NCBI GenBank assembly: GCA_963733375.1
Contig: CAVTDB010000003.1
Location: forward strand, 256,001 to 320,000
DNA from: Nitrospirota bacterium
Lineage (GTDB): Bacteria; Nitrospirota; JACRHJ01
Length of the DNA stretch: 64,000 nucleotides
Direction of reading: 5' to 3'
Shown in pieces: positions 4,056 to 57,606 of this stretch. The notes beneath the pieces were generated by a model. It saw only the letters and a program-made list of their open reading frames with translations, had not been told where the DNA came from and made no database searches. A program made the position numbers and the translations under genes. Within the stretch, counting starts at the first letter, position 1, and each line of letters begins with the position of its first letter.

Positions 4056-4160
4056 AACCGTTCTTTTCTTTCGCGAGAAAGAAAAGAACCAAAAGAAAGC
4101 GGGACTGTTTTTTGGCTAAAAAGTTTTTGGCGTTACCTTTTTCCCAAAAAGGTAACGGTT
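4056..4160. repeat. Family A double-hairpin REP/REPIN-like element, copy 1
   Basis: GTTCTTTTCTTTC-gcga-GAAAGAAAAGAAC-CAAAAGAAAG…AAAAGTTTTTGG-CGTTACCTTTTT-ccc-AAAAAGGTAACG; starts directly after TAA. Confidence 0.9.
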
Positions 4161-4190
4161 TAAAAAACCAGACAAAAAAAGGGTGAAAAA

Positions 4191-5835
4191 GTGAAAAAGA
4201 CGTTCAAGAAGTACATACCAATAATATTCGGGCTTGCCCTTCTTGTAGGGCTTGCCACGGCGGCATTCCCGGACGACAAGCCGGCGGCGGCTCCGGCAAT
4301 GGGCGGCGCTACCACCGCGGCGCCCGCGGCTTCCGAACCCCAGCCTGACCCGTCCGGCGTAAATACCGGCGTCGCGGCCGACGCGGTGGGCGAGGCGCCT
4401 AATTCACCCACTGCCGACGACATGACGAAGCTCGGAAAGACCGAGCCGCTGGCGCTGAAGCTGGCGGACAGCGTCGGCCATAACCGCATAGCCATAAACT
4501 TCGTATGGACACTGGTCACCGGCTTCCTGGTCATGTTCATGCAGGCCGGGTTCGCAATGGTGGAGACCGGCTTCACCCAGGCGAAGAACGCGGGCCATAC
4601 CATGGCCATGAACTTCATGGTCTATCCCCTGGGCATGCTGGGTTATTGGGCAATGGGCTTCGCCCTCCAGATGGGCGGCGTCGGCGGCGTCGCATCGCTT
4701 GGCGCGGGCACGGGAGTGCTGAACCACGAGTTCATCCTGCACATGTTCGGCCACGACTTCGGCCTGTTCGGCCTGAAGGCGTTTTTCCTGTCCGGCGGGT
4801 CTTACGATACCGGCGTCTTCACGCTTTTCCTGTTCCAGATGGTGTTCATGGACACCACCGCCACCATCCCGACCGGCGCGATGGCGGAGAGGTGGAACTT
4901 CAAGTCGTTCGTGATATACGGCCTCTTCGTCGGCGCGGTCATCTATCCGCTTTATGCGAACTGGGTATGGGGCGGCGGCTGGCTTAGCCAGCTCGGGCAT
5001 AATTTCGGCCTGGGCCACGGCCACGTGGATTTCGCAGGCTCCTCCGTCGTCCACATGACAGGCGGCGTCATAGGCCTGGCCGGAGCGATCGTGTTGGGGC
5101 CGCGCATCGGGAAGTTCAACAAGGACGGCTCCCCTAACGCCATACCCGGCCATCACATGCCGATGGCGATAGTCGGCTGCTTCATCCTGGCCTTCGGCTG
5201 GTTCGGGTTCAACCCCGGCTCCACCCTGGCGGGCACGGACTTGCGGATCGGCGTGGTGGCGACAAACACGATGCTCGCCAGCGCGGGCGGCGCGTTTTCG
5301 ACGATGATTTACATGTGGATTCGATACGGAAAGCCGGACATCAGCATGATAGCCAACGGCTTCCTGGCGGGCCTGGTCGCGATCACTGCGCCCTGCGCCT
5401 TCGTCACCGCCCCGATTGCGGTATTTATCGGCGCTGGTCGCGGGCGTTTTGGTCTGCTTCTCGGTATTCTTCGTGGAGCGCACCCTGAAGCTTGACGACC
5501 CGGTCGGCGCGATATCCGTGCACGGGGTTAACGGCGCATGGGGCGTTTTGGCCCTGGGGCTTTTCGCCGACGGCAAATACGGCGACGGCTTAAACGGCGT
5601 GGCGGGTACCGTAAAGGGGCTTTTCTACGGCGACCCCTCTCAGTTCCTGGCCGAAGTGATCGGCACGGCAACGAACATTATCGTTATATTCATAATCTCC
5701 TATGTCTTCTTCAAGGTCCTCGACAAGGTAGTCGGCCTGAGGGTTCCGCCGGAAGTCGAGGAAGAAGGGCTCGACATGGCCGAGGTCGCGGTCAGGGCGT
5801 ATCCGGACTTCAACATCAAGACCATCCACCATTAA
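4191..5835 (+). CDS. amtB: Ammonium transporter 1 (frameshift near 5440, likely sequencing error)
   Basis: FMQAGFAMVETG, DFAGSSVVHMTGG, FGWFGFNPGS and LDDPVGAISVHG, split over ORFs 4191..5495 and 5416..5835. Confidence 0.92.
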
Positions 5836-5862
5836 TCTGGCGGACGATAAGGGAGATATGAA

Positions 5863-6201
5863 ATGAAAAAAATAGAGGCGATAATAAAGCCCTTCAAGCT
5901 GGACGAAGTGAAGGACGCTCTCAATAAAGGCGGCATCAGCGGCCTTACGGTCTCGGAGGTCAAGGGCTTCGGCAGGCAGAAGGGCCATGTCGAGCTCTAC
6001 CGCGGCGCGGAGTATGAGATAAGCTTCCTGCCGAAGGTGAAGATCGAGACGGTGGTTGACGACTCGGTCGTCGATAAGGTCCTGGCGATAATAGAGGAAA
6101 CCGCCAAGACCGGCAAGATCGGCGACGGGAAGATATTCATAATCCCCGTCGAAGAGATAGTCCGCATCAGGACGGGCGAGCGCGGCACGGGCGCGATATA
6201 A
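5863..6201 (+). CDS. glnK: P-II nitrogen regulatory protein
   Basis: [42 protein letters not shown]; adjacent to amtB. Confidence 0.95.
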
Positions 6202-6210
6202 CTCCTCCCT

Positions 6211-6248
6211 GGGGGCCGGGCATGGTGCCCGGTCTCCGTTTTACTTTT
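6211..6248 (+). terminator. Probable intrinsic terminator after glnK1
   Basis: GC-rich stem GGGGCCGGGCA-tgg-TGCCCGGTCTCC followed by GTTTTACTTTT. Confidence 0.5.
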
Positions 6249-56633: not shown

Positions 56634-56664
56634 AGTGCGGAGGAGCCTCCGGCGCGTCGATAAA

Positions 56665-56708
56665 TGAAACTAAAAAATGCCCGCATTTGCGGGCATTTTT
56701 TAGTTTCA
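56665..56708. terminator. Bidirectional terminator between convergent genes
   Basis: TGAAACTAAAAAATGCCCGCA-tt-TGCGGGCATTTTTTAGTTTCA. Confidence 0.85.
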
Positions 56709-56747
56709 GCAAATTTCATTCCCTAAGAAAACGGGAACCCGGCGGCT

Positions 56748-57470
56748 TTAAGAATTTGCATTCAGTATCGACGGGCTTATCTCGACCTTGTTGCTCTTCC
56801 TAAGGCCTTCCTGGAAGGACGCCACCGCCTTTTCCTGCATGACCGTAGTCAGCATCCTCCTGAGGTTCTCCTTCTGGGTCTGGAACTCTTTTTCGTCGAA
56901 TTCCTTCTTCTGGCTTGCAAGGTGGGCCTTATAAAAATCCCTCAGTTCGTTATCGGTAACGTAAACCGAATCCTTCACCATATTCCGGAACTTATCCGCA
57001 AGCATCTCGTCCCTGAGCTGGTGCTCGTATAATGCCGGCGTCATCCCGTTTGCCTGGAGCACCTGGGCATAGCGAGAGCGGTCAAATCTCCCGCTATCGT
57101 CCTGAAAAGATTTATTCCCCGTAACGGCATCGGAAAGCTCCTGGTCCGTTACGGTAAGACCCTGTTTCTGTGCCTCATCCACGAGGAGCTTCTGGTCCAC
57201 CAGGGCCTGGATTGTCCTCTTGTTTAAATCCAGCCTCTTCAGTACGTCCTCGGGGATATTCCCCTTGTACAGGTTACGGTAGAACTCCTGCATCCGGTCC
57301 AGGGCTTCCTCGTACTGGACCATCGTTATTTTTTCCTTCCCCACCTTCGCGGCGTAGTCCGCTACATCTTCTTTCCCCATCATCCATCCGCCCGTCACGA
57401 CGAACGTGAGGGTGACGACCGCGAGAAGCACCTTGATAAGCACCGGGTGCCGGTGGATAAGCTCAATCAT
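56748..57470 (-). CDS. SurA N-terminal domain protein (PpiD-like chaperone)
   Basis: N-terminal TM; AAKVG.EKIT, GLTVTDQEL, FQ..GRFD..RY…L. Confidence 0.8.
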   Translation of the reverse strand: MIELIHRHPVLIKVLLAVVTLTFVVTGGWMMGKEDVADYAAKVGKEKITMVQYEEALDRMQEFYRNLYKGNIPEDVLKRLDLNKRTIQALVDQKLLVDEAQKQGLTVTDQELSDAVTGNKSFQDDSGRFDRSRYAQVLQANGMTPALYEHQLRDEMLADKFRNMVKDSVYVTDNELRDFYKAHLASQKKEFDEKEFQTQKENLRRMLTTVMQEKAVASFQEGLRKSNKVEISPSILNANS

Positions 57471-57496
57471 GTTTAATAGCTCCTTTAAAAAAAATT

Positions 57497-57606
57497 CGTT
57501 ACTTTTCTTTTGGAAAAAAGAAAAGTAACCAAAAGAAAATCGTGAATTGTTTTAGCTGTACAAGTCCAAAAGTTTTTGGTGTTACCTTTTTCCAAAAAGG
57601 TAACGG
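57497..57606. repeat. Family A element, copy 7
   Basis: GTTACTTTTCTTTT-ggaa-AAAAGAAAAGTAAC-CAAAAGAAAA…AAAAGTTTTTGGTGTTACCTTTT…AAAAGGTAAC. Confidence 0.9.

Follow-up and report, generated by a model that had tools for sequence, protein, structure and literature searches.

A 64,000-nt stretch of DNA from a Nitrospirota bacterium (JACRHJ01; assembly GCA_963733375.1, contig CAVTDB010000003.1, positions 256,001-320,000), hereafter the window, contains seven copies of a double-hairpin repeat. Genome-wide counting and a covariance model confirmed that these copies belong to a non-autonomous repeat family, with 291 units in the genome holding the window (G000). We conclude that the repeats are probably small non-autonomous mobile palindromic units resembling repetitive extragenic palindromic sequences (REPs) and bacterial interspersed mosaic elements (BIMEs), and that they represent a new variant of this REP-like kind. 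Empty sites were sought in two same-genus genomes (G001 and G002) and in family relatives (G006-G011), and both presence/absence variation and real new insertions were found.

In bacterial genomes, REP-like repeats belong to the most frequent non-coding features, and their movement is understood only where the REP-associated tyrosine transposase (RAYT) is present. Exact, datable insertions between 96%-identical genomes without a detected known transposase make the question of the mobiliser directly testable. Within core operons such as glmUS, amt-glnB, thi and moa, they alter stop codons as well, from TGA to TAA or the other way round, and change ribosome-binding site (RBS) contexts. Since short-read assemblies are broken by them, they matter for the annotation and binning of uncultured lineages.

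Two-unit architecture and copy number

The seven window copies could be aligned with 30 invariant columns and a mean column identity of 65%, and all of them folded more stably than shuffled sequences (z -2.3 to -6.5; among 200 shuffles, 0-5 were equally stable). A profile built from the seven recovered exactly these seven within the window (starts 4053, 9545, 11205, 15626, 52365, 54311 and 57493), the number given in the preliminary description. Across G000 (2.39 Mb, 26 contigs, 55% G+C) the same profile matched 171 non-overlapping loci, 154 of them at E<1e-5 and 130 near full length. Unit-level profiles resolved the 291 units of G000 into 187 A and 104 B units, and found 276 units in G002. 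The G000 units are arranged as 125 head-out (tail-to-tail) inverted doublets (86 AB, 38 AA' and 1 BB) and 41 singlets, together 15.4 kb or 0.64% of the genome. The nearest-neighbour identity among doublets has a median of 91.5%, and the best true pair reaches 98%; bar one, the doublet pairs at least 98% identical are assembly duplicates with identical flanks. Duplicated assembly stretches in G000 (C12:12585/C13:142243, C3:2718/C9:217965, C11:299/C12:242 and C16:65016/C23:3790) fit its contamination figure of 5%.

Alignment of 66 strong copies gave the two unit types, A and B, each of about 50-60 nt with an A-rich head (T)AAACCG, a hairpin and a conserved single-stranded tail. The hairpin has 14-15 bp, is AT-rich and closed by GTTAC/GTAAC, and has a 5' arm entirely of pyrimidines and a 3' arm entirely of purines. 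Unit A runs from the head (T)AAACCG through the hairpin GTTAC-TTTTCTTTC-loop-GAAAGAAAA-GTAAC to the tail (A)CAAAAGAAAGC, often accompanied by a small spacer hairpin GGAC...GTCC. Unit B begins with the leader (CAGTTT)AAAAGTTTTTGG, followed by the hairpin C-GTTACCTTTTT-loop-AAAAAGGTAAC (T5/A5) and the head GGTTT(T)A; read on the opposite strand, it follows the plan of A, with head, hairpin and a tail starting CCAAAA. As a consensus, the foot reads GTTAC...GTAAC and the head AAACCG, and CTAC...GTAG occurs in only a minority of A units. The paired stem changes that had been noted among the window copies were borne out, with compensatory changes in 11 of 31 consensus pairs, in both hairpins, among 26 copies. 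The A stem is 97% paired, a level that none of 500 shuffles reached.

The arms and tail of unit A vary together. From 343 A units of G000 and G002, 289 could be parsed, and 273 of these share one variant across both arms and the tail (174 + 99), counts that overstate the case because orthologues are not independent. Since arms and tail share the variant, the tail always mirrors the purine arm, and these two purine segments make up, with the GTAAC(A)C spacer, a perfect homopurine mirror repeat in which the two variants change together. Further, when pairing between loop and tail was scored on the 245 units within the 25 commonest combinations, the third loop base complemented the third post-tail base (C:G, G:C or A:T) in about 209, with G:T in 14, counts likewise swollen by orthologues. 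The 5' arm and the tail could instead form a helix with each other; it is 84% paired, includes a single compensated pair and lies weakly above controls. H-DNA is an intramolecular triplex formed from homopurine mirror repeats. Unit A has such a repeat in common with it; the tracts here, in contrast, are only 9 nt long with a short linker from the hairpin base, and an ordinary Watson-Crick alternative fits almost as well. A triplex or H-DNA reading of unit A would nevertheless fit its mirror symmetry.

Insertion, loss and placement at gene ends

We compared the whole G002 genome with G000, the flanks being about 96% identical. At the 120 G000 doublets with syntenic flanks, G002 carried at least two units at 83 sites, one unit at 11 and none at 26, and 8 of 166 sites were without synteny. 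In the reverse comparison, 89 G002 doublets included 3 with no unit and 6 with one unit in G000; 38 of 164 G002 sites were without synteny because G000 is 81% complete.

Polarity was judged with G001, with ten candidate sites taken and five searched. All five tested G000-only doublets were absent from both G001 and G002, and these two genomes otherwise match each other across the junctions, so the five doublets are gains in the G000 lineage. In three-way alignments, the new insertions were exact, about 97-112 nt long, with a junction ambiguity of 0-2 nt, and none of the five clean insertions showed a target-site duplication. Four of them lay at a stop codon or no more than 4 nt from it, and one lay between an RBS and a start codon. 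The target had already carried TAAACCG beside the incoming B hairpin in two insertions, and TAAA in a third.

The sites of the window copies vary among the relatives as well. The copy 5 site is empty in G002, and G001 retains the right-hand A' unit, so the empty site represents a deletion, which leaves the stop TGA in G002 where G000 reads T plus AA from the head. One other site, a new insertion, switched the stop from TAA to TGA. The copy 2 doublet is present in G002; its A hairpin was deleted between AAAAC direct repeats in G001, a solo A stands directly after TAG in G010, and G006 and G008 have no unit. At the copy 1 site only B is found in G002 and only A in G010, and at the copy 3 site B stands alone in G001. 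G006, G007, G009 and G011 show an empty copy 4 site, and in G008 an A unit of independent origin follows TGA directly. At the copy 6 site, a different A variant and B stem are found in G002, a solo B in G001 and no unit in G006 and G008. The A-less joint at copy 6 also occurs in contigs from two metagenome runs, among four peat/wetland DNA runs whose contigs were mostly fragments of related organisms and repeat-induced chimeric joints. The copy 7 site has a solo B in G001, a solo inverted A in G006 and an A-B doublet in G008. At the copy 2, 4 and 7 sites, older gains struck one and the same stop/RBS junction independently. Units at the relatives' sites in another genus are without any head.

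Among 59 orthologous AB pairs, the elements differed at 9.4% of aligned positions, compared with 3.8% in the 500-nt flanks. The B unit was nearly invariant (about 2% different in a tally of per-column differences, against the same 3.8%), and at each site of the spacer and immediate flanks 17-29% of the pairs differed. The A unit often differed blockwise: its variant was swapped in 8 of the 59 pairs (TTTTCTTTC vs TTTCTTTTC, with both partner segments too), and in many further pairs the loop, tail and spacer were swapped while the head and B unit were identical. These swaps fit ectopic conversion or re-insertion of A cassettes.

Placement was analysed with crude codon-usage gene calls (2221 genes over 73% of the G000 genome), so that the distances to stops and starts given here are approximate. 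The midpoint fell inside a gene call at 14 of 154 loci, and the remainder were intergenic. As had been suspected from the window, there was a strong genome-wide association with gene 3' ends. Of 118 doublets with both feet mapped, 87 faced one gene 3' end (within 80 nt), 3 faced two and 28 none. The distance from stop to hairpin foot in the 87 was 1-6 nt, that is, within the head, in 45 doublets and 7-15 nt in 27; the foot lay farther away in 14, and the stop lay inside the element in 1. The far foot and the following start codon were separated by a median of 21 nt (71 cases), equal to the head plus an RBS, so the elements fill nearly the whole gap between stop and RBS. Because the far end is equally tight to the RBS, the smallness of this gap accounts for much of the placement. 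Co-directional neighbours were found at 135 of 151 classifiable loci vs 1846 of 2195 gaps overall; this setting is not special, since most gaps genome-wide are co-directional.

The idea of a TAA-containing target was not supported. TAA was the stop in 66 of the 87 doublets facing one 3' end, compared with 1053 of 2221 genes (47%) genome-wide, and the A-rich head is able to provide the final two A's of a stop codon. A strict TAA target did not hold, since TGA and TAG are also abutted: the closest class included four TGA and four TAG stops (8 of 46 close cases), and in relatives TGA is followed directly by GTTAC (G008) and TAG directly by TTAC (G010). A T preceded the A-run in only 42% of A and 34% of B units. 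Free TAAACCG was not enriched in the window (14 copies against an expected 8.6; 3 of 100 shuffles gave as many). The uniform A-first orientation of the plus-strand window copies (6/6) proved not to be general, as genome-wide 31 doublets had A first and 46 had B first relative to transcription, without significant bias (p=0.11).

Candidate mobilisers and rival explanations

We propose that a trans-acting enzyme recognising the hairpin and tail would insert the units via single-stranded DNA, with an insertion chemistry that may be like that of IS200/IS605 and RAYT and carried out by another protein. The comparisons show that new doublets come in as single exact blocks and leave no duplicated target; units are also gained, lost and exchanged singly, with losses by deletion, in one case between short direct repeats. 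Copies build up in the few bases between a stop and the next RBS, the head often overlapping the stop or rebuilding it as TAA. This location would be kept mainly by purifying selection against insertions elsewhere, and a liking for A-rich TAAA(CCG)-like targets may help placement. Elements in place would be co-transcribed and folded, and we infer that they probably have mild effects on mRNA 3'-end stability or read-through.

Spread by RAYT/HUH nucleases, as the preliminary description had supposed, found no support in the genomes. The Y1_Tnp family (PF01797) had no match in the three same-genus genomes, and as these are only 81, 97 and 94% complete, its absence is not proven. In the same three genomes, IS110 (PF01548), Y2 (PF04986) and homologues of the RAYT-like protein from a B-bearing metagenome-assembled genome (MAG) were not found either. 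G000 alone has a single IS630-like DDE_3 gene, with no units adjoining. Y1_Tnp genes occur in 5 of 11 family genomes, not flanked by A or B units, and the Y1/RAYT-like genes of B-bearing MAGs, likewise without flanking A or B units, were judged not cognate. In G034, a RAYT-like gene is followed after about 60 nt by a B unit; this was rejected as coincidence, with an ordinary terminator between them and the other such genes without a B unit. As for an autonomous parent, the open reading frames (ORFs) between nearby solo-unit pairs were all housekeeping, with no transposase-like ORF. At three G002 sites, 0.7-1.2 kb replaces a doublet; no transposase-like ORF was seen there by eye, and these replacements were set aside as an artefact of repeat-split flanks. 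In a Clostridia-labelled MAG, a RAYT-like gene (G031:C24, L303) is flanked by GTAG-tagged G+C-rich palindromes. Gene and palindromes form a textbook REP/RAYT pair, in a genome that also holds 4 B-type units.

The two units differ in how widely they are found. The doublet covariance model matched 11 of 11 genomes of the family and none of 19 from other families of the phylum, with 95 to at least 115 matches per genome in the three same-genus genomes and 3-38 in other family members. The B core was present in 8 of 301 sampled genomes of the Nitrospirota phylum, all within the one family. An exact B 22-mer occurred at at least 80 loci in GTDB genomes; among the matches listed, 75 lay in three Nitrospirota-titled MAG records and 5 in MAGs labelled Clostridia, Eubacteriales (2), Omnitrophota and Deltaproteobacteria. 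These five are no chance matches: in the MAGs so labelled the leader and inner stem of B are conserved and the stem base differs; a gapped B-core pattern occurred 69, 39, 19, 4 and 1 times, and a reversed-pattern control 0 times. G033 has 39 B-core copies, most of them identical, and the core is present in 3 of 61 genomes of its order. A tail-out doublet was found on an Acetobacteraceae plasmid. No B core was matched in IMG/VR viral contigs or in phage records. The patchy occurrence of B across phyla suggests horizontal spread. The A core, by comparison, numbered 90 in G000, 6 in G003 and 0 in G032-G034, and judged by these sequence matches unit A is lineage-specific, confined to this bacterial family.

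IS200/IS605-type elements transpose as single strands, and palindrome-only derivatives of them exist. The repeats are like these elements, of which IS608 and ISDra2 are named in a section of PMC6006769, in their exact insertion without duplication, sub-terminal hairpins and short fixed end sequence, here (T)AAACCG. They are unlike them in that no Y1 protein was found in the same-genus genomes, the same head is inverted at both ends, and no strand or orientation bias was detected. With the REP/BIME/REPIN systems of Proteobacteria (REPINs, REP doublets forming hairpins), which come with RAYT, they share more than 100 copies, extragenic imperfect palindromes mostly at gene 3' ends, inverted doublets, mosaics, two-type hybrids, compensatory stem changes and strong strain differences; sections of PMC2817692, PMC3337134 and PMC3116915 describe copy number, palindromes, doublets and strain differences for REPs. 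Unlike those systems, the same-genus genomes here yielded no RAYT gene. A section of PMC3733652 gives a GTAG or CGTC tetranucleotide tag at the palindrome end as the mark of REP/RAYT, whereas the repeats here have no such tag as consensus. Their stems are also AT-rich and purine/pyrimidine-pure in a 55% G+C genome, and gains and losses affect single units. According to 10.1101/2022.05.22.493013, REPINs are inherited vertically, whereas the core of unit B is common to several phyla. Correia/NEMIS, RUP and ERIC MITEs (miniature inverted-repeat transposable elements), with Correia features taken from part of PMC4853749, are similar in their 100-150 bp, hairpin folds, co-transcription in operons and TA-rich termini, but the repeats here have no TA duplication and no parent insertion sequence, and are built of two modular units. 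The repeats fail two defining tests of REPs, the cognate RAYT and the GTAG/CGTC tag, as well as the target-duplication test of MITEs. No match to a described family emerged: Rfam 15 gave no match at gathering score in the window (the best relaxed match, over six copies, reached 27 bits, below the threshold of 54). The literature search, with subscription papers and supplements outside its scope, found no account of the repeat family, and motif-string searches returned only primer noise.

Four rival explanations were weighed against REP-like mobile units. A REPIN/BIME system driven by a RAYT, a Y1 HUH transposase whose gene is missing from the assemblies, would account for the more than 100 copies, the inverted doublets of imperfect palindromes, the hybrid doublets of two unit types, the exact duplication-free insertion and the conserved single-stranded tag beside a hairpin with a freely varying base, habits that match those of REP/RAYT in the relevant part of PMC2817692. 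We consider it quite unlikely, as neither PF01797 nor a RAYT-like homologue turned up in G000, G001 and G002, the Y1 genes of family relatives and B-bearing MAGs are without flanking units, the G031 gene has palindromes of the GTAG type, and units vary singly, not just as doublets. A classical MITE derived from an IS630/Tc1-type DDE transposon, with a TA target and the TAAA...TTTA ends as terminal inverted repeats, seems very improbable. Although the ends can be read as inverted repeats TAAACCG...CGGTTTA, T is raised before the A-run in both unit types and G000 has one IS630-like DDE_3 gene, there was no target-site duplication in the five clean insertions, and no units border that gene, which G001 and G002 lack. 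Further, single units come and go, and the head is entirely missing from units in another genus.

The two remaining rivals do without a transposable element. The repeats could be host cis-acting RNA elements (3'-end stabilisers, attenuators or terminators, or translational couplers), selected and homogenised by gene conversion and not transposable. This is an unlikely reading in our judgement, even though it would explain the exact stop-to-RBS position, the B unit being more conserved than the flanking genes between orthologues, the compensatory changes and the two competing helices per unit. Also in its favour, 5 of 14 window unit hairpins passed a loose terminator scan when read outward; however, their stems are AT-rich with 3-4 G-C pairs and followed by only 3-4 T, and the terminator-like totals did not exceed those of shuffles overall (23 vs 14.5, standard deviation 4.1; 9 vs 8.9). 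Nor does such an element account for the lack of orientation bias to transcription, for about 290 copies beside unrelated genes, or for new insertions and losses between 96%-identical genomes, one of them between RBS and start codon. Turnover might also involve no transposition, only homologous or microhomology recombination and replication slippage among existing palindromes. The exchange of A cassettes while head and B unit stay fixed, the deletion between AAAAC direct repeats, the 4-7 nt of head-to-target microhomology at 3 of 5 new junctions and the failure to find a transposase all agree with it. We nevertheless hold it improbable, because 3 of the 5 new doublets entered unit-free sites, with 2 nt of homology or less at one junction, and because a high-copy B core in other phyla, with 39 near-identical copies in G033, needs a route of transfer and amplification.

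Several points weigh against REP-like mobile units themselves. Besides the missing PF01797, PF01548 and PF04986 genes, the lone DDE_3 gene without units and the crude gene calls, only 5 of the 26 G000-only sites are polarised. No identical copies exist at separate loci, so no recent burst is visible in G000. The slower change of B than of its flanks could mean host function or concerted evolution, not selfish spread, and the A swaps could equally be ectopic gene conversion, not transposition.

A bolder reading, which we regard as doubtful, would combine two proposals: that the units are the footprint of an undescribed, horizontally transferred mobilisation system, and that unit A is a three-strand device. 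The system would be none of Y1/RAYT, Y2, IS110 and IS630, would recognise the single-stranded AAAAGTTTTTGG tag beside a free-base hairpin, and would home just behind stop codons in several phyla. The pyrimidine arm, purine arm and mirror tail of A would co-change, along with a covarying pair between loop and tail, as parts of a triple-helix/pseudoknot-like fold or of H-DNA at gene ends.

Window copies and other miniature repeats

The positions and settings of the window copies are listed in Table 1. Six of the seven are A-B doublets, and copy 5 consists of two A units in inverted arrangement. All seven are flanked by co-directional genes, in agreement with the preliminary description, and the Pfam names of their neighbours are Amt, P-II, SecG, ThiF/ThiS-like, GlmU, GlmS, UvrD-like, SurA-like and MoaC.

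Table 1. Location, unit composition and gene setting of the seven repeat copies (window coordinates)
Copy	Position	Strand	Units	Setting
1	4052..4162	+	A-B doublet	unnamed ORF (stop TAA 4053-4055) before, Amt gene after
2	9545..9651	+	A-B doublet	P-II gene before (stop TAA 9540-9542)
3	11205..11306	+	A-B doublet	at secG 3' end; GC-rich terminator-like hairpin 11307-11331 next
4	15626..15729	+	A-B doublet	ThiF/ThiS-like gene (stop TAA 15626-15628), then radical-SAM/BATS gene
5	52368..52469	+	A-A' doublet	glmU (stop TAA 52365-52367), then glmS
6	54311..54414	+	A-B doublet	glmS (stop TAA 54311-54313), then UvrD-like helicase gene
7	57493..57608	+	A-B doublet, long spacer	between minus-strand moaC and SurA-like gene

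The six copies on plus-strand operons had been said to start 0-3 nt after a TAA. This held for five of them, each behind an in-frame TAA, and was not confirmed for copy 3, where the SecG domain is read in another frame than the TAA at 11205-11207, in G000 and G002 alike. In the frame of the Pfam domain, the secG ORF (10880-11299) of both genomes continues for about 30 codons inside copy 3 before its end at 11299, and a natural-looking Pro/Ala/Gln tail that ends with the TAA at 11205-11207 is in a different frame. Either a frameshift is common to both assemblies, or the C-terminus was rewritten by copy 3. At copy 7, the B head abuts the TGA stop of minus-strand moaC (57611-57613). Copies 1 and 2 stand at the ends of one plus-strand run (4191-9542) of two ammonium-transporter genes and the P-II gene.

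Other miniature repeats lie near or within the units. A second repeat (TGTCTTCGCT..CGCTCTGGACAGGTAAATC..TTTC), about 35 nt long, is often arranged in tandem and usually stands behind TTTC; it occurs in the window at about 18786 (minus strand) and at 19816-19850 (tandem), and elsewhere in G000 at C16:69322, C3:211391, C26:385292 and other sites. Several A hairpins carry it in their loops, and other repeats contain it too; its 12-mer is found 38 times in G000 and 9 times in G002, and the orthologous G002 hairpin at C16:69322 is without it. A third, G+C-rich palindromic insert of about 50 nt (GGACCGCCCCGCGCTAA...GGTAAGCGGTGGGGAC) splits B hairpins or spacers in G001 and G002, at the orthologues of C1:10123 and C12:7077 of G000 and of window copy 2, and these two genomes hold several nested families of miniature repeats. 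At the copy 4 site of G008 (L087), an insert of about 190 nt behind the A unit has a long inverted repeat, GGGGAGAGTATTCTC...GAGAATGCTCTCCCC, and is another miniature element.

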